Virus record (IMG/VR): IMGVR_UViG_2778261463_000017
Location: 1-9,315 of that record
Reading direction: 5' to 3' (one strand)
DNA length: 9,315 nt
From: a virus
Lineage: Duplodnaviria; Heunggongvirae; Uroviricota; Caudoviricetes
The notes under the pieces were generated by a model. The model saw only the letters and a program-made list of their open reading frames with translations. It did no database searches and was not told the DNA's origin. Positions 1-9,315 of the stretch are shown here, piece after piece. Every line of letters starts with the position of its first letter. Position 1 is the stretch's first letter. The position numbers and the translations under genes were made by a program.

Positions 1-1242
1 ATGGCGAGAAAAACACACCCATTAACCACAGTGCAGATCAAAGCAGCCAGACCAGCGCAAAAGGAGTACACCCTGCAGGACGGCGGAGGGCTTTTTCTCC
101 TGGTCAAACCGTCTGGATCAAAACTCTGGAGATTTTCCTACTACCGACCATCGGACAAAAAAAGAATATTGCTGAGTTTTGGATCGCTTGAAGATGTTTC
201 CCTGGCTGATGCCAGAAAACGCCGTAGCGAGTACAGGACGTTAATCAGTGCCGGAACTGACCCGCAGGACCACGAGAGGCAAAAAAGAGAGACAGAGGCC
301 CGAAGACAAGGGAACACGTTCGAAAATGTGGCGGCGGCATGGTACCAGGTGAAAATCAGCCAGAATCTGGCCCCCAACACGATTAAAGACATCTGGCGTT
401 CGCTGGATAAATATGTATTCCCGTTCATCGGCAACACGCCAATAGATACCCTCACCGCCCGAAGGTTCGTTGAAGTGCTTACCCCCATCAAGGAGCGCGG
501 CAACCTGGAAACACTCAAGCGGGTTTTACAGCGCGTTAATGAGGTAATGGATTACGCCGCCAACAGTGGGCTGATTGATGCCAATCCGGCTATGAATGTG
601 CGTAAGGCGTTTCCCTCACCTGTAAAAAAACATATGCCAACAATCCGCCCCGAACAGCTGCCCGAGCTTATGCAGGCTTTATCAGTATCGGCAACAGAAC
701 GGCAGACCAGATTACTGATTGAATGGCAGTTACTGACCGTAACCCGTCCCGCCGAAGCGTCATCAACGCGGTGGGATGAAATCAACCTGGACGCGAAGCA
801 ATGGACGATACCTGCCGGACGCATGAAGATGCGCAGGGATCACGTTATCCCGCTTTCCGGTCAGGCTATGGCGGTGCTGGAGGCCATGAAACCAATCAGC
901 CACCACCGCAATTACGTTTTCCCAAGTCTGAAAGACCCACAGCAGCCGATGAACAGCCAGACAGCTAACGCAGCATTGCGGCGTATGGGATTCGCTGGCG
1001 TGCTGGTGTCTCATGGATTACGCGCCATATTCAGCACAGCAGCGAACGAGGAAGGATTCGAGCCGGACGTAATAGAGGCGGCACTTGCCCACGTCGACAC
1101 CAACGAAGTTAGACGGGCATACAACCGGAGCAACTACCTGGAAAAACGTGTAGTACTTATGCGCTGGTGGGGTGAATTTGTGGAAGCCGCAGCAACCGGA
1201 GTGACCATAGCCAGTGGTAAAAGGGGTATCCGTGCGGTGTAA
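1..1242 (+). CDS. int: P4-type tyrosine integrase (site-specific recombinase)
   Basis: 413-aa ORF starting MARKTHPLT...; the N-terminal block (KLWRFSYYRP...) and overall length are typical of P4/CP4-57-like integrases as I recall them. Full length from first base of window to TAA at 1240-1242. Confidence 0.9.
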   Translation: MARKTHPLTTVQIKAARPAQKEYTLQDGGGLFLLVKPSGSKLWRFSYYRPSDKKRILLSFGSLEDVSLADARKRRSEYRTLISAGTDPQDHERQKRETEARRQGNTFENVAAAWYQVKISQNLAPNTIKDIWRSLDKYVFPFIGNTPIDTLTARRFVEVLTPIKERGNLETLKRVLQRVNEVMDYAANSGLIDANPAMNVRKAFPSPVKKHMPTIRPEQLPELMQALSVSATERQTRLLIEWQLLTVTRPAEASSTRWDEINLDAKQWTIPAGRMKMRRDHVIPLSGQAMAVLEAMKPISHHRNYVFPSLKDPQQPMNSQTANAALRRMGFAGVLVSHGLRAIFSTAANEEGFEPDVIEAALAHVDTNEVRRAYNRSNYLEKRVVLMRWWGEFVEAAATGVTIASGKRGIRAV

Positions 1243-1355
1243 CTGTACAAAAAACCAGTACAACCAGTGCAAACCATGCTAAACCATCGTATAATCGCCT
1301 ATCTCCTCAACAGACAAGGAAAAACCCGACTCATGAGAAATCGAGATTTATTGAA

Positions 1356-1598
1356 ATGGTCTGGCACGAAAAATCATCCAATGTCTGCGGTGAAGGGCTG
1401 CAACTGGCGTTAATGGCAAATCGTGAATTCTGGTCAACATACGATCCGGAAGACAAATCAACAGCCCCCACAAAACACGAGGTAGTCAGTTTTTTACGCT
1501 CGCGTGGCGCATCGAAAAATCTGGCTGAAAGCATCGACAAGGTGCTGAGGCCCACCAGCCTTAAATGTGGTGGGCGACCTAAGAAGTGGAAACGGTAA
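1356..1598 (+). CDS. small hypothetical protein (start uncertain; ATG at 1416 is an alternative)
   Basis: 80-codon ORF with no clear Shine-Dalgarno, but it is followed within a few nt by a hairpin plus T-run terminator, which suggests it is a transcribed unit. No recognisable family. Confidence 0.35.
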   Translation: MVWHEKSSNVCGEGLQLALMANREFWSTYDPEDKSTAPTKHEVVSFLRSRGASKNLAESIDKVLRPTSLKCGGRPKKWKR

Positions 1599-1603
1599 TC
1601 ACA

Positions 1604-1634
1604 ATAGCGGCCCCTTGCGGTCGCTATTTTTTTG
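1604..1634 (+). terminator. rho-independent terminator
   Basis: Stem ATAGCGGCC / GGTCGCTAT around a CCTTGC loop, followed by TTTTTTT (1627-1634), directly after the stop at 1596-1598. Confidence 0.6.
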
Positions 1635-1666
1635 CAAAAAGAAAGCGTAATCAATGAGATAAAAAA

Positions 1667-1703
1667 CAGTGAGTACCGTTTTAAAACGGTGAGTACTGTT
1701 TTT
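1667..1703. promoter_or_regulatory. operator-like palindrome with flanking direct repeats upstream of alpA
   Basis: Perfect 16-bp palindrome ACCGTTTTAAAACGGT (1675-1690) embedded in a tandem direct repeat GTGAGTAC(C/T)GTTTT, about 65 bp upstream of the alpA start. Confidence 0.4.
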
Positions 1704-1767
1704 CCCGCCCTGCCCTGTTTTACCGTATTTATCACCGGAATACGCCGGATTAACGAGGTAAAACACG

Positions 1768-1974
1768 ATGGAAGTAATCAGAAAAATTCTTACCCGTCAG
1801 GAAGTAAAAAATATTCTGCGCATCAAGGCAGACAGTTCGCTACAGGACATGATCAACGCCGGAAAATTCCCGAAAGGCTTCAAAATCGGTCTGCGCCGTG
1901 TTGGCTGGTATGAAGATGAGGTGCAGGCCTGGTTGAAAGAACGCGAGGAAGAAGCGCGCGGAACGGCTGCGTAA
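1768..1974 (+). CDS. alpA: AlpA-family prophage transcriptional regulator (small HTH protein)
   Basis: 68-aa protein MEVIRKILTRQEVKNILRIKADSSLQDMINAGKFPKGFKIGLRRVGWYEDEVQAWL, a classic AlpA/phage-AlpA signature; GAGGT Shine-Dalgarno 8 nt upstream. Confidence 0.85.
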   Translation: MEVIRKILTRQEVKNILRIKADSSLQDMINAGKFPKGFKIGLRRVGWYEDEVQAWLKEREEEARGTAA

Positions 1975-2121
1975 TGGTGTGAGGTGTAACGCAATGAACA
2001 TAACAAAAAGCGCCCCGTTGCCGGAGCGCCCTTGTGAACAATTAACCTGCTGCGAAAAAAATGGATCAGTGCAGGGGAATTATATCAACCGTGTGACGAA
2101 GCGCCACAATTGCCGGATAAC

Positions 2122-2153
2122 AGGCAAAACAAAGGCCACCTGCTACGGTGGCC
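2122..2153 (-). terminator. candidate rho-independent terminator for the reverse-strand repressor gene
   Basis: Perfect 7-bp stem GGCCACC / GGTGGCC (2134-2140, 2147-2153) with a 6-nt loop; on the minus strand it is followed by TTTGTTTTG. Lies about 100 bp downstream of the stop at 2257. Confidence 0.4.
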
Positions 2154-2256
2154 ATTCGACACAAGCTACACGTTATCCCCAACGCAAGAGAGATGATTAC
2201 TATGCCGTGATTACATCCGGTTGGCAATGTGATCAGTGTGCTGGCTTGCTGGTGGG

Positions 2257-2562
2257 CTATTCCTGCTCTTTGGCTTTGCGCCGCTGGAGTTCTTCACGCG
2301 CAACGGCGACGAGTTGCCCGATCTCCTCGGCAGCTTTGACACCGATTTTTTCCACCTGCGCCAGTGCATCGAGCGAAGAAACCAGGGGATTTTCTCCTCT
2401 TCCTTCTGCCTGGCGGCGGGCGATCTCACCACGCATGGCGGTTACTATGAATCCGGCGTTGCTTTCGCCGTCCAGTTTTACGGATTCCATGCCATCAAAA
2501 GCATCATGTGGGATACGAATTGAAATCTGTTTTGATTTGTCGTTGATAGTGTTTTTTGCCAT
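2257..2562 (-). CDS. putative ribbon-helix-helix DNA-binding protein (candidate island repressor)
   Basis: 101 aa from MAKNTINDK...; the segment KQISIRIPHDAFDGMESVKL...NAGFIVTAMRGEIARR fits a beta-strand/helix/helix RHH pattern, followed by a charged helical tail. GGAGA Shine-Dalgarno 6 nt before this ATG. The longer 2257-2601 start is rejected because it has no spacing to the SD. Confidence 0.55.
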   Translation of the reverse strand: MAKNTINDKSKQISIRIPHDAFDGMESVKLDGESNAGFIVTAMRGEIARRQAEGRGENPLVSSLDALAQVEKIGVKAAEEIGQLVAVAREELQRRKAKEQE

Positions 2563-2584
2563 GTGCATTCTCCTAAACAAAATA

Positions 2585-2660
2585 TGTGATTCAGTATACA
2601 CAAAAAAGAATCACAAAAAATACTTGACCTGTGATTCAGTTGAATTTAATTTAAATCACA
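2585..2660. promoter_or_regulatory. divergent promoter/operator region between RHH gene and icd-like gene
   Basis: Two inverted-repeat pairs TGTGATTCAG...GAATCACA (2585-2615) and TGTGATTCAG...AAATCACA (2630-2660); a -35-like TTGACC (2624-2629) with TAATTT 17 bp downstream, overlapped by the second palindrome. Confidence 0.5.
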
Positions 2661-2685
2661 CCTCAGTAAGAGGATGTAAACGACA

Positions 2686-2719
2686 ACGCCCCGAACTGTT
2701 TGCGGCAGTAGCGGGGCGT
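2686..2719 (+). other. stable hairpin in the icd leader (candidate structured regulatory RNA element)
   Basis: 8-bp GC-rich stem ACGCCCCG (2686-2693) / CGGGGCGT (2712-2719) with an 18-nt loop containing an inner CTG/CAG stem; no T-run follows, so it is unlikely to be a terminator. Confidence 0.3.
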
Positions 2720-2755
2720 CTAACCACCAACGATAGCGAAAGTATCGAGGTAGCT

Positions 2756-2950
2756 ATGAGAAATCATACCACACACCCGCAAGGGCGGGACTCGCACAAC
2801 CTGAATAAATACATCTGGCGTTTTATCGCCCTGAGCACGGCACAACCGCGCGTGATTCACATCGTGGCCACCAGCGAACAGGAAGCGCGTCAGCAATCTC
2901 CTGATGGCTGCGTGATGGTATTGGCCTCCAGATTTCATCATCGCTGTTTG
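2756..2950 (+). CDS. Icd-like (host cell division inhibitor-like) small protein; 3' end undefined because the frame has no stop until 3988
   Basis: ATG at 2756 with GAGG Shine-Dalgarno; MRNHTTHPQGRDSHNLNKYIWRFIALSTAQPRVIHIVATSEQEARQQ resembles Icd-like proteins of P4-like elements as I remember them. Downstream of ~2950 the same frame becomes Cys/Arg/Ser/Phe-rich and un-protein-like, so the end given here is approximate, not a stop codon. Confidence 0.45.
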
Positions 2951-3132
2951 TTTTTTGTCTGTCTCTCCTCGGGGTATGGGGTTGTGCCGTTCCAGCGTAT
3001 GCGGGGCCGTTCACTGATGAAGCGCTCAAGCGGGAAATTATCGGATGGCGCGGGGGGCCGTACCCGTCGTTCCCGCCTCCGCTGGCGTACCACGCTGGCT
3101 TCGGTAATTTCCCCTGATTCGTTTATTTTCAT
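2938..3132 (-). CDS. small Arg/Pro-rich protein, paralogue A of a three-member mini-gene family
   Basis: 64 aa (MKINESGEITEASVVRQRRRERRVRPPAPSDNFPLERFISERPRIRW...); strong GGAGGT Shine-Dalgarno 8 nt upstream of ATG; shares the RRERR...PP.P...FPLE.FI..R.R pattern with the ORF at 3376-3546. Confidence 0.3.
   Translation of the reverse strand: MKINESGEITEASVVRQRRRERRVRPPAPSDNFPLERFISERPRIRWNGTTPYPEERQTKNKQR
3014..3033. repeat. dispersed direct repeat copy A (CTGATGAAGCGCTCAAGCGG)
   Basis: One of three copies of CTGATGAAN(3)CNNNAGCGG; 17/20 identical to copy C and 15/20 to copy B. Confidence 0.5.
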
Positions 3133-3175
3133 AAAGAGTTACCTCCGTGCTCATCTGCTCTGGCGTTTTCTGTTT

Positions 3176-3195
3176 CTGATGAAGACTTACAGCGG
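3176..3195. repeat. dispersed direct repeat copy B (CTGATGAAGACTTACAGCGG)
   Basis: 162 bp downstream of copy A (a multiple of 3); the most diverged copy, with a stop in the minus-strand reading. Confidence 0.45.
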
Positions 3196-3207
3196 TAGCG
3201 GCGTATC

Positions 3208-3324
3208 TTATTTTAAGATTTGGTTTAATTTCTCGTGTCTGGCTTTAATGACGGCGCGTAATAATATCTGTCGCTGCTTTGTGTTTACGTCCAGAACTGT
3301 GGGGGATAATATGGATTTGTTCAT
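3208..3324 (-). CDS. short ORF (38 aa), possibly a truncated paralogue B of the mini-gene family
   Basis: MNKSILSPTVLDVNTKQRQILLRAVIKARHEKLNQILK; AGGTGA Shine-Dalgarno 5 nt upstream of ATG; stops just before repeat copy B. Uses AT-rich codons (ATA, TTA), which weakens the call. Confidence 0.2.
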   Translation of the reverse strand: MNKSILSPTVLDVNTKQRQILLRAVIKARHEKLNQILK

Positions 3325-3375
3325 GGTGCTCACCTGTAATGCATTGCGTCGTGATGCCTCATATCACGGCGGCGG

Positions 3376-3546
3376 TTATCGTTTTGTTCGGATTCGTCCC
3401 CTGATGAAATCCTCAAGCGGAAAATGTTCAGGGCGAGGTAATTCAGGAGGGACAGGGTTATTACTCATGCGCTCACGTTCCCTTGCGGCGCGTGCAGCAT
3501 TCAGCTTTTGCAGGAGCACATCAAACGGCACCCCCTTATCATTCAT
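3376..3546 (-). CDS. small Arg/Pro-rich protein, paralogue C of the mini-gene family
   Basis: 56 aa (MNDKGVPFDVLLQKLNAARAARERERMSNNPVPPELPRPEHFPLEDFIRGRIRTKR); G-rich Shine-Dalgarno-like run before ATG; C-terminal half aligns with the ORF at 2938-3132. Confidence 0.3.
   Translation of the reverse strand: MNDKGVPFDVLLQKLNAARAARERERMSNNPVPPELPRPEHFPLEDFIRGRIRTKR
3401..3420. repeat. dispersed direct repeat copy C (CTGATGAAATCCTCAAGCGG)
   Basis: 225 bp downstream of copy B (a multiple of 3); differs from copy A at three adjacent positions only. Confidence 0.5.
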
Positions 3547-3700
3547 GGTCCCCCCTGTATATCCGTTGTTAACTGATGGTTACAGGTGCATTTTTCGCAC
3601 AAACTATTTAATCAACACATCCGACCACATTATCAGAGAGCCGGAATATACAGGGGCAATAATCCCGCATTTGCTGGCCTACGCACAGCTTACCGCTGAT

Positions 3701-3988
3701 ATGGCACTGAATGAGGCCAAAGCCATCCTGATTGCTGATTGTGAATATGGGGTTATGCGTGATGATCGTTTTAATGCCCTGAAACAGGAATTTGATGGCA
3801 CACCGGAAGATACAGATATTGCGCTGTTATGTGTTGCTGACATGGTAAAAGCTGCATGTTTTTTACTGGAAACCGCCGAACATTCAGGAACGGGTAGCGA
3901 TATTCTCAATATTGCGTCGGACTATGCTGAATATGTGGCAGAGGCGCGTTACAGAAGAAAATTCCAGGAGGTGGTTAGCCATGAATAA
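3701..3988 (+). CDS. hypothetical acidic protein, first gene of the replication operon (true start may be upstream)
   Basis: 95 aa (MALNEAKAILIADCEYGVMRDDRFNALKQEFDGTPEDTDIALLCVADMVKAACFLLETAEHSG...) with protein-like composition, unlike the upstream part of the same frame. No convincing Shine-Dalgarno at 3701; the stop overlaps the next gene's start. Confidence 0.5.
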   Translation: MALNEAKAILIADCEYGVMRDDRFNALKQEFDGTPEDTDIALLCVADMVKAACFLLETAEHSGTGSDILNIASDYAEYVAEARYRRKFQEVVSHE

Positions 3989-4181
3989 TCATGAAGCGCA
4001 CTTACCTGTAGTGCTTAATGTGCCATCTGATTATACGGGGCGCGTTTTGATATTCCTGGATAAAGGGAAAGTGAAATCGCAATGCCGCCTTAGAAATAAT
4101 GAGGTTATTGGTTCTCTGGCTTTTTTTTCTGAAGCCTGTATTCGCGCCGGAATAAAGCCGGAATCACTGACAGGAAAATAA
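3981..4181 (+). CDS. hypothetical small protein
   Basis: 66 aa from MNNHEAHLPVVLNVPSDYTGRVLIFLDKGKVK...; strong AGGAGGTGG Shine-Dalgarno; ATG overlaps the upstream stop (ATGAATAA), indicating translational coupling. The ORF-track start at 3912 is rejected. Confidence 0.5.
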   Translation: MNNHEAHLPVVLNVPSDYTGRVLIFLDKGKVKSQCRLRNNEVIGSLAFFSEACIRAGIKPESLTGK

Positions 4182-4185
4182 AACC

Positions 4186-4485
4186 ATGAAAAAGAAAAAT
4201 TCTGGCTTTACTGCCAGCGGCCCCGCTCGGCCTGAAATCCGTCCCGGCGATATTTTCCGTGATAACTACGGCGGTACGGTAACGATTAAAGGCGTGGCAG
4301 AACGGCGCATCACTTACCGCCGTGATGGCTACGAATATGACTGCGTGATGCCTGTTTATCAGTTCCGGCGTGATTTTTCTCTGGTACAGGCAGCGCCCCG
4401 CAGTAAACCAACCAGCAGGGAGAAAGCACGCGCCAATATTCAGAAGATGAAAACCATGATTAACGGATTCAGGGATAAAAAATGA
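4186..4485 (+). CDS. hypothetical basic protein (prophage-associated small protein of unknown function)
   Basis: 99 aa (..GDIFRDNYGGTVTIKGVAERRITYRRDGYEYDCVMPVYQFRRDFSLV..); AGGAAA 8 nt upstream; stop overlaps the primase start (ATGA). Family identity not established. Confidence 0.55.
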   Translation: MKKKNSGFTASGPARPEIRPGDIFRDNYGGTVTIKGVAERRITYRRDGYEYDCVMPVYQFRRDFSLVQAAPRSKPTSREKARANIQKMKTMINGFRDKK

Positions 4486-5897
4486 AACTGGCACCGAACT
4501 TAAAAAAACAGCCACACAACAAAATGACCGAAGTCATTATTTTTGCAGGTAGTGATGCCTGGGCGCACGCAAAACAATGGCAGGAACAGGACGGGCGACT
4601 TGCTGGCGATAACGTCCCGCCAGTATGGCTGGGAGACAGTCAGCTTGACGAACTGGCAGACCTGAAAATTATCGACGATGGTCGCTATTGTGTCCGGCTG
4701 TACAAGGCAGGCCACATCAAGCCATCAAATATTAATGCCATCGGGCAAAAACTGGCGGCGGCAGGTGTACGGGATGCGAGTTATTACCCCGAGGGAATGC
4801 ACAGCCAGAAGCGGGAGGAATGGCGCGACTACCTGCAACGGATCCGCGAACAGGCAGAGCGCGGGGAAATACTTACTGATGAGCAATACAGCCAGCGAAA
4901 AACCACGCTACCCATGAGCATTGGATCTGCAGGATACGACACACAGCTTGATTATGTCGTTAAGGGCGTGATTCCGGCTAATTCATTGTGCAGCACATAC
5001 GGTGCGAGCGGTTCCTATAAATCATTCCTTGCGTGTTCCTGGGCGTGTCATGTTGCCACGGGGCGCCACTGGGGAGGCCGCAGGGTGGCGCATGGTTCGG
5101 TGATGTATGTTGTCGGTGAAGGTGGCATTGGTGTCCCCCGTCGTATCAAGGCATGGGAAATCGTTAATGATGAACGGGTGAAAAATCTGTACCTGGTAAA
5201 CCGCCCGATTTTTCCGGCAGCCCCGCTTGATGTTGATGAAATGGTTATCGCTTCCCGCCAGGTTGAACGGGAAACGGGTAAACCGGTACGCATGATTATT
5301 CTGGATACGCTGGCGCGTTGCTTTGGCGGTAATGATGAAAATGACGCGCGGGATATGGGGGCGTTTATCCGTGGATGTGACGACCTGAAACGACGCACAG
5401 GGGCCACGGTGCTGGTGGTCCACCATTCCGGCAAGGATGAAACAAAGGGGGCGCGTGGTTCCAGTGCATTTCGTGCATCTCTGGACGCTGAATACCGTAT
5501 TCGCCGAGAAGGTGCAGACAGTAAAGCCCTGGTTATATCCTGCACCAAAATGAAGGACGCGGAGGAACTGAAAGAGGCCGCCTACGATTTACGCGTGGTG
5601 GAGCTTTTTACCGACGCTGACGGGGAGTTAATCACGTCGCTGGTGGTGGTGGATAAGCCGCGCACTCCCGTTGAACTGGAGCGCATCGAGGAGGCAGGCA
5701 ACAAGACGGAAAACCATACCGCGCTATGGCAGTGCATCAGAACGCGAACAGCACACGGGGAGGCGTGCACTATCGCCCTTCTCCGCGACGATATGAAAAA
5801 GCTGGGGTATGAGATGAAGCACTTCCGGCGCTGGCTGTCCAAGCTGGAAAAAGACGGCGTGATTTGTGTCGATGGGGATGATGTTTACCCACTGTAA
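4482..5897 (+). CDS. replication initiator: primase-like N-terminal domain fused to a RecA-like AAA ATPase (PICI pri-rep type)
   Basis: 471 aa; Walker A GASGSYKS, Walker B-like MIILDTL, and an HHSGKDETKG block typical of RepA/DnaB-like AAA ATPases; AGGGA Shine-Dalgarno 6 nt upstream; iteron array immediately downstream. Confidence 0.85.
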   Translation: MKLAPNLKKQPHNKMTEVIIFAGSDAWAHAKQWQEQDGRLAGDNVPPVWLGDSQLDELADLKIIDDGRYCVRLYKAGHIKPSNINAIGQKLAAAGVRDASYYPEGMHSQKREEWRDYLQRIREQAERGEILTDEQYSQRKTTLPMSIGSAGYDTQLDYVVKGVIPANSLCSTYGASGSYKSFLACSWACHVATGRHWGGRRVAHGSVMYVVGEGGIGVPRRIKAWEIVNDERVKNLYLVNRPIFPAAPLDVDEMVIASRQVERETGKPVRMIILDTLARCFGGNDENDARDMGAFIRGCDDLKRRTGATVLVVHHSGKDETKGARGSSAFRASLDAEYRIRREGADSKALVISCTKMKDAEELKEAAYDLRVVELFTDADGELITSLVVVDKPRTPVELERIEEAGNKTENHTALWQCIRTRTAHGEACTIALLRDDMKKLGYEMKHFRRWLSKLEKDGVICVDGDDVYPL

Positions 5898-6098
5898 AAA
5901 GTGGGTAGTAAAAGTGGGGAGAGTGGGGAATTTAACAAAATTGAAACATAATTCCCCACTTTCCCACCTGTATACATCCAAAAAAGTGGGGAGTAAAAAA
6001 CGCAATGAAAAACAAAGCATTAGATTCACTCAAAAAACGAGGTGGGGAGCAAGTGGGGAATTTAAAAAGTGGGGAGCAAAAGTGGGGAGTGGTGGGGA
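5898..6098. repeat. iteron-type replication origin (GTGGGGA repeats flanking AT-rich spacers)
   Basis: About ten copies of GTGGG(G/T)A in direct orientation (5901, 5914, 5923, 5986, 6032, 6043, 6069, 6082, 6092) and two in inverted orientation (5952-5968), with an 18-bp unit AGTGGGGAATTTAA(C/A)AAA present twice and an A-rich segment 5993-6030. Confidence 0.7.
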
Positions 6099-6350
6099 AT
6101 GAACAGAAAAACCAGAGATAAGACAGCGCCAAAATATAAAGCGTTAGACATGACAGAGCACGCCTTAAAGGTGGCAATCAGAACGATAGACCGCCACGCC
6201 GGAGAAGGATACGCGAAAGCACATCCCGAACTGATAAGTGCATTCATGACCACAGCGGCGGCAAACTTTGCCACGCTGACAGAACGGGAGATTGCCGAAG
6301 CAGAACAGGTAACAACCATCAATGTTAAAACCGGAGAGCAGACAGCATGA
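6099..6350 (+). CDS. hypothetical small protein (start uncertain)
   Basis: 83 aa from MNRKTRDK...; stop overlaps the ssb start (ATGA). The putative start sits inside the last iteron, so the start is insecure. Confidence 0.45.
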   Translation: MNRKTRDKTAPKYKALDMTEHALKVAIRTIDRHAGEGYAKAHPELISAFMTTAAANFATLTEREIAEAEQVTTINVKTGEQTA

Positions 6351-6757
6351 CAGCACAGATAGCGGCTTACGGGCGGCTGGTGGACGACCCGCAGACAAAA
6401 CAGACCAGTAAGGGTACACCGATGACGCTGGCGCGTATGGCGGTATCTTTACCATGCGGCCAGGCACAGGACGGACAGGCGACGTTATGGTTATCGGTCA
6501 TCGCATTTGGCAAACAGGCCGACTTTCTGGCTAAACATCAAAAAGGCGACGTTGCCAGCGTATCCGGCACGATGCAGGTCAGCCAGTGGACCGGACAGAA
6601 CGGGGAAACGCGGCAGGGTTATCAGGTCATTGCAGACAGTGTAATCAGTGCCCGTGCTGCACGTCCTGGCGGGAGCAGACGCACAACCACAGGCACACAG
6701 GGGAATAAGCCACCAGCGGGAGGCGATGACCCTTACGGTGATGATATTCCGTTCTGA
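6347..6757 (+). CDS. ssb: single-stranded DNA-binding protein (SSB)
   Basis: 136 aa; OB-fold-like N-terminus (GRLVDDPQ..., WLSVIAFGKQADFL, QWTGQNGETRQGYQVIADSV), a Gly/Pro-rich linker and the acidic C-terminal tail ending DDIPF characteristic of bacterial/phage SSBs; GGAGAG Shine-Dalgarno. Confidence 0.8.
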   Translation: MTAQIAAYGRLVDDPQTKQTSKGTPMTLARMAVSLPCGQAQDGQATLWLSVIAFGKQADFLAKHQKGDVASVSGTMQVSQWTGQNGETRQGYQVIADSVISARAARPGGSRRTTTGTQGNKPPAGGDDPYGDDIPF

Positions 6758-6767
6758 GGGGGTGACG

Positions 6768-7040
6768 ATGGTACATGACCGGATAGCGGAGGAACTGGAG
6801 GCGAAAGGATTTTACCGGAGGGCGGCGGCGCGATGGGGTGAAGTTATGTGGCTGGTGAGCACTGACAAGGAGCGCGAACAGGTGGCAATGCGACGGCTGG
6901 AATGTTCCCGGAAGGCACAGAGGCCACCGGAGCCGCCGGATGATTTAGGCGCTCTGAAAAGGTCAGTTAATCGCACTGAAAAACAAATGGGGATAGCTGG
7001 TATTGGCAAAGCAATATGGCGCAACTACCCGCAGAAGTGA
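6768..7040 (+). CDS. PerC-family transcriptional regulator-like protein
   Basis: 90 aa from MVHDRIAEELEAKGFYRRAAARWGEVM...; this N-terminal motif resembles PerC/Pch-type prophage regulators as I recall them; GAGGGGG Shine-Dalgarno. The ORF-track start at 6648 overlaps ssb and is rejected. Confidence 0.55.
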   Translation: MVHDRIAEELEAKGFYRRAAARWGEVMWLVSTDKEREQVAMRRLECSRKAQRPPEPPDDLGALKRSVNRTEKQMGIAGIGKAIWRNYPQK

Positions 7041-7046
7041 GCACAC

Positions 7047-7071
7047 AGCCGGAGCAATCCGGCTTTTTTAC
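7047..7071 (+). terminator. rho-independent terminator ending the replication/regulatory operon
   Basis: Hairpin AGCCGGA-GCAA-TCCGGCT followed by TTTTTTA, 7 nt after the PerC-like stop. Confidence 0.65.
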
Positions 7072-7081
7072 GCCTAAAAAA

Positions 7082-7114
7082 AGCCCGATAAGGTCACAGG
7101 GGGCTTATCGGGCT
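7082..7114. terminator. second hairpin, possibly a bidirectional terminator
   Basis: 11-bp stem AGCCCGATAAG / CTTATCGGGCT flanked by AAAAAAA upstream and TTTTG downstream. Confidence 0.4.
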
Positions 7115-7196
7115 TTTGTATACGAGGTTTTTTATGGTGCACTGACACACATGATCGGGATAATCATTTCATAATTTGCAACGTAACTCAATATTG

Positions 7197-7224
7197 TTGC
7201 GCAAAATGCAATCATGATTATAAT
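7197..7224 (+). promoter_or_regulatory. candidate sigma70 promoter of the capsid operon
   Basis: TTGCGC (7197-7202), 16-bp spacer, consensus TATAAT (7219-7224); the -35 lies in a palindromic TTGCGCAA. Confidence 0.45.
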
Positions 7225-7228
7225 CAGG

Positions 7229-7246
7229 ACTGGATGAACATCCAGT
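7229..7246. promoter_or_regulatory. operator-like palindrome just downstream of the -10
   Basis: ACTGGATG-AA-CATCCAGT: 8-bp perfect inverted arms with a 2-nt centre, starting 5 bp after the TATAAT. Confidence 0.4.
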
Positions 7247-7280
7247 TATGATTTTTTAAGTCAAAGAGGAATTTCTGACT

Positions 7281-7487
7281 ATGGCAGAAGAGAAAAAAGG
7301 CGGGGTGACGGTCTACATAAGCCCCGACATCGTGGAGGCGCTCAAGGAACGCCACCAGCAGAATGTAAAAGCAGGCATTGCGGCAGGACTTGATCCGCTG
7401 GCGATGGTTGAGCCGTCAACAGGCTGGCAGGTGCGCACCTATTTACGTGCGGCGCTGGGTATCAATCAGGTTCACGGAGGTGAATAA
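7281..7487 (+). CDS. small hypothetical protein, first gene of the capsid operon
   Basis: 68 aa (MAEEKKGGVTVYISPDIVEALKERHQQNVKAGIAAGL...); AGAGGA Shine-Dalgarno; its TAA overlaps the capsid gene ATG by one base (TAATG). Confidence 0.5.
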   Translation: MAEEKKGGVTVYISPDIVEALKERHQQNVKAGIAAGLDPLAMVEPSTGWQVRTYLRAALGINQVHGGE

Positions 7488-8542
7488 TGACAGGCAAAGC
7501 AACGGCACTTACAACTAACCAGCTTTTCGCGTACCTGAATCGCGGGGATATTGCGGATTTTAAATTCAGCCCTCTGTTTACCACGCTGTTTTTCCCGAAC
7601 GTGGCGACCTTCAACACCCAAAACATCATGCTGGACACCCTGGACATTGAAGAGGTTACGATGTCAGCGTTCTGTTCGCCTATGGTGGGTAGTCAGGTCC
7701 AGCGCGATAAAGGGTACGAAACCAGCACGATTAAACCCGGCTACATGAAGCCAAAGCACGAAATCGATCCAACAAAGACCATCATGCGCATGGCTGGAGA
7801 AGATCCGGCACAGCTTAACGATCCAACTTACCGCCGTATGCGCCTGATTACTGGCAACATGCGCCGCCAGATAAACGCCATTAAGGCGCGCGTGGAATGG
7901 CTGGCGGTGAATGCGGTAACGACCGGAAAAAACATCATTGAGGGCGAAGGCATAGAACGCTATGAAATCGACTGGAAAATACCGGAAAACTGCATCATAC
8001 AGCAGGCCAGTGGTAAAAAATGGTCCGAGCAGGATAAAGACATGCACGACCCAATCTATGACATCGAGCTTTATGCTGATCAGGCAGGTTGCCCCGCCAA
8101 CGTCATGATTATGGGCGGTGAGGTATGGCGCACATTACGCAGCTTTAAAAAATTCCGTGAACTGTACGATCTTTCGCGTGGCTCAGAATCCGCCGCCGAG
8201 CTGGCCTGTAAAAACCTGGGCGAAGTGGTGAGCTTTAAAGGCTATCTTGGTGATCTGGGCCTTATCGTCTATTCCGGCAAATACACTGACAGCGACGGCA
8301 CCGAAAAATATTTCCTTGAGCCTGATTTGCTGGTCCTGGGTAACACCAACAATAAAGGGCTGGTGGCCTATGGTGCGATTATGGATCAGGAAGCGGTAAG
8401 AACGGGCGCAACGCAAAACATGTACTACCCGAAAAACTGGATTGAGGACGGCGATCCGGCGATTGAGTACGTGCAGACGCACAGCGCACCGCAGCCGGTA
8501 CCGGCAGATATTCGCAAATTTGTTACCGTCAAAATTGCTTAA
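7487..8542 (+). CDS. lambda gpE-like major capsid protein (HK97-fold MCP family)
   Basis: 351 aa; colinear similarity to lambda gpE as I recall it (KFxPLF..LFF near the N-terminus, PGYMKPKHE, RRMRLI..NMR, KWSEQDK, RSFK, GSESA, VSFKGYLGDLGLIVYSGKY, VLGNT, YPKNW..GDPA); strong GGAGGTG Shine-Dalgarno. Confidence 0.85.
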   Translation: MTGKATALTTNQLFAYLNRGDIADFKFSPLFTTLFFPNVATFNTQNIMLDTLDIEEVTMSAFCSPMVGSQVQRDKGYETSTIKPGYMKPKHEIDPTKTIMRMAGEDPAQLNDPTYRRMRLITGNMRRQINAIKARVEWLAVNAVTTGKNIIEGEGIERYEIDWKIPENCIIQQASGKKWSEQDKDMHDPIYDIELYADQAGCPANVMIMGGEVWRTLRSFKKFRELYDLSRGSESAAELACKNLGEVVSFKGYLGDLGLIVYSGKYTDSDGTEKYFLEPDLLVLGNTNNKGLVAYGAIMDQEAVRTGATQNMYYPKNWIEDGDPAIEYVQTHSAPQPVPADIRKFVTVKIA

Positions 8543-8553
8543 CGGGGGATTCT

Positions 8554-8889
8554 ATGGACGCTCCATACATTGAGTTATTTTCAGGCAGCCAGCAGGTATC
8601 CACGACGCTGGTACATTTTGCCGCTGATGCTGGCGTTATTCAGGAATTTACCCCGCTGATGCTGGCAGACAATGGCGAGTTTAAGGCGTGGGATGGTCAG
8701 GAATCTGGCAAAGCTGTTTATCTGACTTCGCACCCCGTGGACACGTCAAAGCAGAAATCAGCACAGTGTTACAAAACGGGGATATTCAATATTGCCGCCG
8801 TTAACTGGCCTGATAGCGTCGACACCGATGCGAAAAAATGCGCCGCCTTTGCGGGTTCCGGCGTATCCGTTCAGCCGCTGGCCCGATAA
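8554..8889 (+). CDS. lambda gpD-like head decoration protein
   Basis: 111 aa; PLMLADNGEFKAWDG, YKTGIF, VNWPDSVDTDAKKCAAFAGSGVSV parallel the gpD blocks PLMLD..AWDG, YKSGTF, WPEA..ETKKRTAFAGTAISIV. Confidence 0.7.
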   Translation: MDAPYIELFSGSQQVSTTLVHFAADAGVIQEFTPLMLADNGEFKAWDGQESGKAVYLTSHPVDTSKQKSAQCYKTGIFNIAAVNWPDSVDTDAKKCAAFAGSGVSVQPLAR

Positions 8890-8901
8890 GCAGGGGGAAC
8901 G

Positions 8902-9315
8902 ATGGCAACGAATGAAAGTATCATGACGCTACCGCTGGCGAGTAAATTTAAAGCCGAAGCGCGGGCAATGGCTGACAGAGGTTTATCAACCTACGAGGCC
9001 ATACACCGACTAAACAAACTGGAAGAACAGGACAAGCCGCGCGCTGATGCGATTATGGCGCTTCATGAATCTGACGACTACCAGCCGCTGTTACGTGCAA
9101 TGGCTAACGTGCCTTGTATCGATGTTGGTACGGCTAAAAGCATCCTTAGCATGACCATAGAGCAGGAACGCCCGAAGGTTGCACCAGAGCTTACTTCAGC
9201 CTTTGAAAACTTTATGGACATGCACAGCCCGAAAGCCGTATCAGCTGGCATGGCATACGATGGCAGAAACCCGGGCGATGACGGCGACATCGATCACATA
9301 CTGAAAACCATCTGA
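8902..9315 (+). CDS. hypothetical protein downstream of the decoration gene
   Basis: 137 aa with AGGGGGAA Shine-Dalgarno, ending TGA at the last bases of the window; composition is protein-like (charged, helical N-terminus). Function not recognisable. Confidence 0.55.
   Translation: MATNESIMTLPLASKFKAEARAMADRGLSTYEAIHRLNKLEEQDKPRADAIMALHESDDYQPLLRAMANVPCIDVGTAKSILSMTIEQERPKVAPELTSAFENFMDMHSPKAVSAGMAYDGRNPGDDGDIDHILKTI

Follow-up and report, generated by a model that had tools for sequence, protein, structure and literature searches.

A long stop-free frame across the leftward regulatory genes of an EcCICFT073-like satellite of Escherichia coli appears to be kept open without encoding one conventional protein

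How can one forward frame run for about 2 kb without a stop codon when it does not read like one protein? The question is raised by a 9,315-nucleotide stretch of viral DNA (IMG/VR record IMGVR_UViG_2778261463_000017, positions 1 to 9,315; hereafter the window), which from its Pfam hits and the match of its layout to the prototype is an EcCICFT073-like, capsid-encoding phage-inducible chromosomal island (PICI) satellite of E. coli. An original prediction, made from the letters of the window, had drawn attention to a 669-codon open reading frame (ORF) at 1979-3988 on the forward strand. This ORF (1979..3988, 669 aa) is present in the ORF list, and the stop-free stretch to which it belongs is slightly longer, running from 1937, directly after a TGA at 1934-1936, to the TGA at 3986-3988, with 683 sense codons. 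It is the longest open run among the six frames of the window and exceeds every real gene there. Between 1937 and 3985 the long frame contains no stops, compared with 40 and 39 in the other two forward frames and 25-31 in the three reverse frames, and openness on this scale is far beyond chance.

The anatomy of the frame is well supported, and it is that of a chain of segments without being one conventional gene (Table 1), as the original prediction had suspected. Only the Icd-like domain (2756-2944) and a terminal segment homologous to the end of the phrog_2512 protein (3626-3988) look as if they code on the forward strand; the remainder looks either antisense to leftward genes or non-genic. 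Codon-position GC and purine periodicity, a check proposed in the original prediction, make the same division: GC1 exceeds GC2, the signature of forward coding, in these two segments alone, and the periodicity is inverted over the reverse-strand ORFs relative to the forward genes. Counts of variable sites at the first, second and third forward codon positions are 41/31/66 in the phrog_2512 segment and 19/14/36 in the Icd-like domain, in both cases a forward coding pattern, which is also displayed by alpA (15/8/26) and by the gene that follows phrog_2512 (22/16/33). Over the reverse-strand YlcI/YnfO-family gene the counts are 10/22/60, fitting reverse codon positions 2/1/3, and in two non-genic stretches they are flat, at 37/33/32 and, in the divergent control region, 27/33/33. 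Local BLAST alignments of the diverged non-genic DNA display many gaps of 1-2 nt, which are probably alignment noise. About 250 stop-free codons of the window lie where neither strand carries a gene.

The upstream half of the frame, which we refer to as the bridge, fills the interval between alpA and the Icd-like domain. The alpA stop codon lies shortly before its likely start, and a GTG at 1979 offers an alternative in-frame start. The bridge crosses two leftward terminators, reading '..KSAPLPERP..' over the first, a peptide found again in homologous long ORFs, and then passes antisense through the YlcI/YnfO gene, which is wholly embedded in it in a register where the third codon positions of both strands coincide. 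The ribbon-helix-helix (RHH) gene that the original prediction had placed opposite the frame at 2257-2562 is this YlcI/YnfO gene, identified by a hidden Markov model (HMM) match above cut-off (NF041551) together with coding-type substitution on the reverse strand. In the 750 nt before Icd, the other two forward frames of the window hold 15 and 11 stops. The long ORF resembles an antisense overlapping (dual-coding) gene in that it lies opposite an established gene and has its own ribosome-binding site and start; purifying selection on its own amino acids is not seen, the variability being flat across codon positions in the non-genic parts and, over YlcI, of the reverse coding type.

One explanation is that coding on the opposite strand, together with base composition, leaves a shadow ORF open as a by-product, which gene callers then pick up. 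Stop avoidance of this sort was among the possibilities in the original prediction, and it does account for a minority of the openness: the leftward proteins contain little Tyr, His or Gln, which keeps the expected number of forward stops low, and synonymous shuffling in the window yields only 0.85 expected stops for YlcI (P(0) 0.36) and 1.7 for three small leftward ORFs (P(0) 0.10). The antisense strand of other island genes is also fairly open, with a median longest run of 112 codons opposite the downstream rightward genes. However, the same low expectation for YlcI means that opposite-strand coding explains little of what is observed, and the larger anomaly is the non-genic DNA, where some 250 codons are equally open. 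Fully open 800-nt chunks number 0 of 78 in the control antisense regions, compared with 17 of 26 upstream regions, whose median longest run is at least 266 codons. Furthermore, synonymous shuffling of the leftward genes at 28 loci predicts 43 forward stops in total and none is observed. Every plausible leftward gene at those 28 loci (YlcI/YnfO and the FALExF types described below, 1-5 per island) lies in one and the same reverse frame, such that a forward codon is the complement of m2, the complement of m1 and the complement of the previous m3, with third positions coinciding. The by-product explanation is strongly disfavored by these observations and by the recurrence of the pattern across the island family, and we regard it as very improbable.

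The recurrence was examined with 7 loci from other species, 80 from IMG/VR and 5 annotated in E. coli, from which 26 non-redundant representatives of 7 genera were taken, named as E. coli, E. ruysiae, Cedecea, Pantoea, Klebsiella, Hafnia and Shigella. Within E. coli, 1,445 genomes gave a match to positions 1900-4200 of the window. In the 750 nt upstream of Icd these 26 islands contain 54 stops in the Icd frame versus 364 and 397 in the other two forward frames. Seventeen of them have none, and three loci, in which a neighboring forward frame is open instead, account for most of the 54. At about 75 unique loci, the gap between alpA and Icd (505-2530 nt) is 84-100% covered by forward stop-free runs of at least 60 codons. 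The open frame starts before, at, or up to 60 nt after the alpA stop, and a Shine-Dalgarno (SD) motif with an ATG 9-20 nt past that stop occurs in several alpA classes, for example TAAaGGGGAGtatATG, TAGGGGGGAGCTATG, TGAGGTAGGGTATG and TAAGGTGAGTTATG. Openness of the upstream half is conserved throughout the island family, a point that the original prediction had missed.

EcCICFT073 itself (L098, NC_004431.1 1379525-1381052) has a 434-codon open frame extending from 38 nt past the alpA stop to the Icd stop. This frame spans two annotated leftward genes and has 1 stop, compared with 19 and 28 in the other frames. The first ~60 codons of the EcCICFT073 bridge represent what is left of an antirepressor N-terminus, which is also the case in another island (L005), and islands with a long alpA-Icd gap carry a genuine forward AntA/KilAC-like antirepressor gene between alpA and the bridge (L015 from 2080, L008 from 3434). 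The flat variation in non-genic DNA and the depletion of stops throughout the family together strongly support the view that selection keeps the bridge stop-free across these islands; judged by its substitution pattern, the amino-acid sequence of the bridge is unconstrained.

These two properties bear directly on whether the frame encodes a genuine long multi-domain protein. The original prediction had listed a fused or long protein among its options, and this is literally true of the ORF: the NCBI Prokaryotic Genome Annotation Pipeline (PGAP) annotates a 410-aa Icd-like protein here, and a protein search with the 410-aa ORF finds many E. coli 'Icd-like proteins' of 280-660 aa, of which the databases hold hundreds. 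The SD and ATG sites at the start of the long frame would also favor a long protein, and transposon insertions in an Icd-like protein whose N-terminal extension is long suppressed a phenotype (10.1101/2023.04.06.535777), a result that could equally be explained by polarity or by disruption of a leftward gene. The bridging parts, however, carry no sign of amino-acid constraint. Their non-genic portions vary equally at the three codon positions, and the extensions of different islands are non-homologous, mirroring whichever leftward genes are present; in the database proteins only the C-terminal ~60-aa domain matches. The extension lies in a different frame from Icd in ~15% of loci, and no Pfam, NCBIfam or PHROG family matches it. 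Its composition is typical of antisense translation: the stretch that the original prediction had called low-complexity is, over 2945-3625, rich in Ser, Arg, Leu, Gly and Phe, with no Glu in 227 residues. A genuine long protein is, on this evidence, unlikely.

Table 1. Features of the window within and beside the long forward frame, with the basis of each assignment.
Feature	Position	Strand	Basis and remarks
Tyrosine integrase	1-1242		Pfam
alpA (AlpA-family regulator)	1768..1974	+	PF05930 Phage_AlpA, 36.2 bits
Likely start of long frame	1981..1996	+	SD-like GAGGTG 1981-1986, in-frame ATG 1994-1996, 20 nt past alpA stop
Leftward intrinsic terminator	2006..2033	-	12-bp stem and T run (terminator scan)
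Second leftward intrinsic terminator	2134..2153	-	Terminator scan; forward frame reads '..KTKAT..'
YlcI/YnfO-family (RHH-like) gene	2257..2562	-	NF041551, 65.1 bits (cut-off 30); phrog_6522, 2e-57
Divergent control region between YlcI/YnfO and Icd	2563..2755		Non-genic on both strands; 64 codons, 0 stops
Icd-like domain	2756..2944	+	NF033153, 54.9 bits (cut-off 25), residues 19-60 from ATG 2756
681-bp module	2945..3625		Replaces Icd stop and first ~30 codons of phrog_2512 gene; junctions mapped against L003 and L005
64-aa FALExF ORF	2938..3132	-	SD GGAGGT; HMM E=3.5e-7; stop overlaps Icd 'HH' codons
Decayed FALExF-type ORF, 38 aa	3208..3324	-	SD AGGTGA; HMM E=0.055, third-best ORF in window
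56-aa FALExF ORF	3376..3546	-	HMM E=1.9e-6; identical database protein P0205, 10 contigs; hypothetical protein in some genomes
C-terminal ~120 codons of phrog_2512 protein	3626..3988	+	E=2.6e-49, profile positions 31-153 of 154; aligned to L003 154-aa protein

The downstream half of the frame raises a separate question, namely why the Icd-like gene has no stop of its own. The original prediction had noted the missing stop for the frame from the ATG at 2756, which matches NF033153, the family model of Icd-like host cell division inhibitors. The domain has its own SD (GAGGT, 2747-2751) and is complete through the conserved '..HH' C-terminus, yet instead of the small stand-alone protein of about 62-69 aa that stops just past '..HH', it remains open until 3988. 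The proposed alignment to homologous islands located the usual stop, which falls after 67-69 codons at 78 of 80 related IMG/VR loci. In ordinary islands Icd is 62-68 aa long and the next gene follows directly; in NZ_CP085069 (L003), for example, the Icd-like protein is 68 aa long, its C-terminus reads '..HHVQ*', and there is an 11-nt overlap with the start of a 154-aa phrog_2512 protein that begins MCNNTRPDAAAEAIK. Homology of the window to such islands is lost just past the Icd 'HH' codons (~2945) and regained at ~3626, with a 681-bp module in between. The phrog_2512 protein is accordingly incomplete in the window, its first ~30 residues, including the N-terminal MCNNT... region, being replaced by the inserted module. 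The plausible 95-aa protein noted at 3701-3988 in the original prediction corresponds to a real protein segment, but phrog_2512 homology begins already at ~3617-3626; neither ATG 3545 nor ATG 3701 is supported as an ancestral start of a forward gene.

Three small leftward ORFs lie in the module, together with a portion of a divergent control region. Like the bridge it is open in the long frame, with 0 stops compared with 12 and 11 in the other forward frames, and the 93 non-genic codons within 3133-3700 have 0 stops compared with 5 and 5. It is joined in frame on both sides. Only 10 of 5,426 complete E. coli genomes contain it, all at ≥99.7% identity, and further copies occur in IMG/VR contigs and a metagenome contig. 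A donor was sought in E. coli genomes, phages, plasmids, IMG/VR and metagenomes, and only the same post-Icd arrangement was found, with no match in the phage or plasmid collections. Short similarities (55-76 nt) connect the module to the pre-Icd regions of other islands. A repeat scan of the window found no transposon-like ends; a short direct repeat that it reported is the FALExF motif of two paralogous reverse ORFs.

These findings bear on two further explanations for the missing stop. A sequencing or assembly error that deleted the stop of a short Icd-like ORF, for instance in the T6 run at 2951-2956, might be suggested by the homopolymer runs near the junction and by an IMG/VR copy with a 1-nt indel elsewhere in the segment; however, the same 681-bp arrangement recurs in IMG/VR contigs, the metagenome contig and 10 complete genomes that come from different laboratories, and ordinary islands differ from it by a 681-bp replacement and not by a single-base indel. 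An assembly error, as envisaged in the original prediction, is in effect excluded. The frameshifted pseudogene that it had offered as a further possibility is not needed, given that the homologous islands reveal replacement of the Icd stop and ~30 codons.

A more serious alternative confines itself to 2945-3988 and holds that the Icd::module::phrog_2512' arrangement is a recent recombination accident, neutral or mildly harmful, or a case of pseudogenization. The rarity and near-absence of sequence diversity of the module would fit such an event, as would the decay of one of its three reverse-strand genes, the loss of the first 30 codons of the phrog_2512 gene, and the 1-nt indel, at the G run near 3450, that ends the frame early in one IMG/VR copy (L039); two in-frame junctions would arise by chance about 1 time in 9. 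PGAP also calls the Icd-like gene of one genome (NZ_CP120557.1; L001 3711-3957) a 'frameshifted, incomplete' pseudogene. That call seems unnecessary, as the locus has a 417-codon frame (3760-5013) with another type of Icd N-terminus (MAVRQ...) and a 22-nt overlap with the upstream bridge. This locus included, the module block sits behind at least three different upstream modules, always in an unbroken forward ORF chain, and its 93 non-genic codons are free of stops, which argues against an accident. In-frame joins are seen in further mosaics of the family. One is a direct Icd::phrog_2512 fusion of 145 aa (L045, from IMG/VR, from 3248), and another is a 629-aa ORF (protein P0023) made up of bridge, truncated Icd, Ash (PF10554) and a second Icd. 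On balance we consider an accident unlikely for the downstream half, though it deserves some weight.

We propose instead that the window lost its Icd stop through recombinational insertion of a second, already stop-free module of the same kind, joined in frame, and that the whole frame serves to keep a rightward transcript covered by ribosomes. The SD and ATG at 1981-1996 would open the bridge reading frame, which would run rightward over both leftward terminators, continue across the YlcI/YnfO gene and the divergent control region, and pass in frame into Icd. In the window lineage, ribosomes would continue through a second antisense passage, the 681-bp module, and finish in the C-terminal codons of phrog_2512, where the TGA at 3986-3988 overlaps the ATG of the next gene (3984) as ATGA. 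In this manner the AlpA-activated transcript could be kept ribosome-covered across the antisense regulatory module and protected from Rho-dependent polarity, or from attack by antisense RNA and RNase, up to Icd and the replication genes, the bridge being selected for being translated and not for its product. The proposal is motivated by the organization of the island: coupling between the rightward genes is tight, their junctions being ATGA or overlaps of stop and start, and the bridge occupies the one long stretch that would be left untranslated without it. We assign this explanation as a whole (segment chain, selection against stops, ribosome-covered transcript and in-frame insertion in the window lineage) a probability of roughly 0.55.

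Several observations weigh against it. To the near-uniformity of the module and the L039 indel must be added that not all alpA classes have an evident SD motif, and that the bridge is out of frame with Icd in the ~15% of loci mentioned above, although there it terminates 20-150 nt short of the Icd ATG. Over 2945-3625 the plus-strand RNA is rich in G and U and not in C, so that it makes no obvious rut site, and untranslated gaps of ~200 nt exist elsewhere in the island. AlpA-type proteins in Pseudomonas can be processive antiterminators, in which case coupling to ribosomes may be unnecessary. Most of the loci are from E. coli and are related to one another, so that their counts do not represent independent events.

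The strongest form of the proposal, which we hold only tentatively and at somewhat less than even odds, is that the bridge is a translation-only ORF of 250-680 codons whose sole job is to carry ribosomes on the AlpA-induced mRNA across the island's leftward regulatory genes. If it is true, a leftward regulatory module can sit inside an induced operon, which would explain how a satellite is able to place leftward control genes within the operon they may control, and rightward transcription and translation over these genes might help to silence them at induction. New regulatory modules would recombine in only when the frame is preserved, as in the window, and the single reading register of the leftward regulator genes in PICI satellites would be accounted for. 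It would also represent a natural and widespread case of selection on a long ORF solely for absence of stops, a cis-acting use of translation, and would offer a simple test of polarity and transcription-translation coupling in mobile elements by means of a stop codon silent on the opposite strand. The hundreds of implausible 300-660-aa 'Icd-like proteins' produced by annotation pipelines would be explained, and the proposal has consequences for the interpretation of transposon hits published for Icd-like proteins that carry long N-terminal extensions. In practical terms, long Icd-like ORFs should be neither annotated nor modeled as multi-domain proteins, and gene calling should recover the small leftward genes that they conceal.

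Two of the small leftward genes in the module, of 64 and 56 aa, belong to a family that we name FALExF, whose members have 57-82 aa, a C-terminal F-A/P-L-E/D-x-F-L/V/I motif and a basic tail. The assignment was made with an HMM built from other loci, the window lineage being left out. In the window these genes are located after Icd, compared with a position between alpA and Icd elsewhere, where they are often tandem paralogues (for example L004 3003-3992, reverse strand). The 38-aa ORF is homologous to a 67-aa protein of L004, MSKHRFSPVTPNISALQRQRLIRAIIETRQEKL...PPPLEVFLSGRKNQ; its reverse frame continues '..EKLNQILK*DTPLPL*VFIRNRKRQSR*', with two in-frame stops where the forward frame is still open. 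While a search with the concatenated reverse-ORF protein found nothing, a later profile search did find the family, in 108 database clusters that are all labeled 'hypothetical protein'; Pfam and NCBIfam assign FALExF proteins to no family.

Upstream of a leftward small gene lies a conserved ~45-nt leader, GTGATATGAGGCATCACGACGCAATGCATTACAGGTGAGCACC-ATG, present at 3322-3367 on the reverse strand of the window and around 4035 in L004. A structured RNA element in this leader was considered and rejected, as its predicted fold is no more stable than those of shuffled sequences (z=0.29). Leader-related sequence seems to be the source of a '..CKAMRRSTSHHGA..' peptide that occurs up to three times in translations of long Icd-like ORFs. 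An Rfam scan of the whole window returned only a sub-threshold match to an isrD-like small RNA at 2128-2170 on the reverse strand (22.4 bits versus a gathering threshold of 37, E=0.72), which is probably a mere resemblance to the terminator hairpin; no known RNA accounts for the region. One promoter-like site was noted at 2556-2583. Within the apparent divergent control region of the module, an imperfect inverted repeat, CCCCTGTATAT(T)CCG, at 3552-3565 and 3642-3656, with arms ~76 nt apart and a 1-nt gap, could be an operator pair.

The remainder of the window is typical of its class. Further Pfam hits identify DUF4222, an AAA_25/RepA-like helicase, SSB, PerC, major capsid protein E and head decoration protein D. 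An integrase gene at one end, alpA, a replication module and the island's own capsid genes make it a capsid-forming PICI, the full gene set of a phage being absent; the window stops short of the packaging genes. Its order of int, alpA, leftward YlcI/YnfO module, Icd-like, DUF4222, primase/helicase, SSB, PerC, capsid E and decoration D is that of EcCICFT073-type and capsid-forming PICIs of the Enterobacteriaceae. In EcCICFT073, which has its own open bridge frame, AlpA activates its own promoter and the downstream, rightward PICI genes (PMC6092414). The window differs from these islands in its extra, second leftward module after Icd.

The nearest precedent for the proposed mechanism is the immI operon of phage P1 (c4 antisense RNA - icd - ant), from which the Icd-like domain takes its name and in which a short icd lies upstream of ant. 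Biere, Citron and Schuster reportedly found in 1992 that a block of P1 icd translation by c4 RNA leads to Rho-dependent premature termination. Translation of an upstream ORF as an anti-polarity device is, by analogy, what we suggest for the bridge. A c4-like RNA was not found in the Rfam scan of the window, which returned only the sub-threshold hairpin. Expression of P1 icd has been reported as apparently required for ant expression (PMC8201110). However, P1 icd has ~73 codons and is not antisense through other genes, whereas the bridge has 250-680 codons, overlaps 1-5 leftward genes and two terminators, and appears free of amino-acid constraint.

The long 'Icd-like proteins' of the databases are the same objects as the frames described here, starting after alpA and ending at the Icd stop. 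A preprint treats such ORFs as proteins with an N-terminal extension (10.1101/2023.04.06.535777), whereas here the extension is antisense to regulatory genes and appears unconstrained. Antisense overlapping genes of E. coli (ano, asa and others of enterohaemorrhagic E. coli) are likewise long ORFs opposite annotated genes with their own SD and start. Those genes are proposed to be protein-coding and to have phenotypes; the bridge, in contrast, is apparently selected only for the absence of stops, extends over non-genic DNA as well and connects two segments of the operon. The papers covered by our literature search contain no description of a conserved, sequence-unconstrained stop-free bridge, of a shared leftward register or of the FALExF family. 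Translational coupling or anti-polarity and antisense overlapping ORFs are known kinds to which the bridge is related, and the long ORFs themselves are already in the databases.

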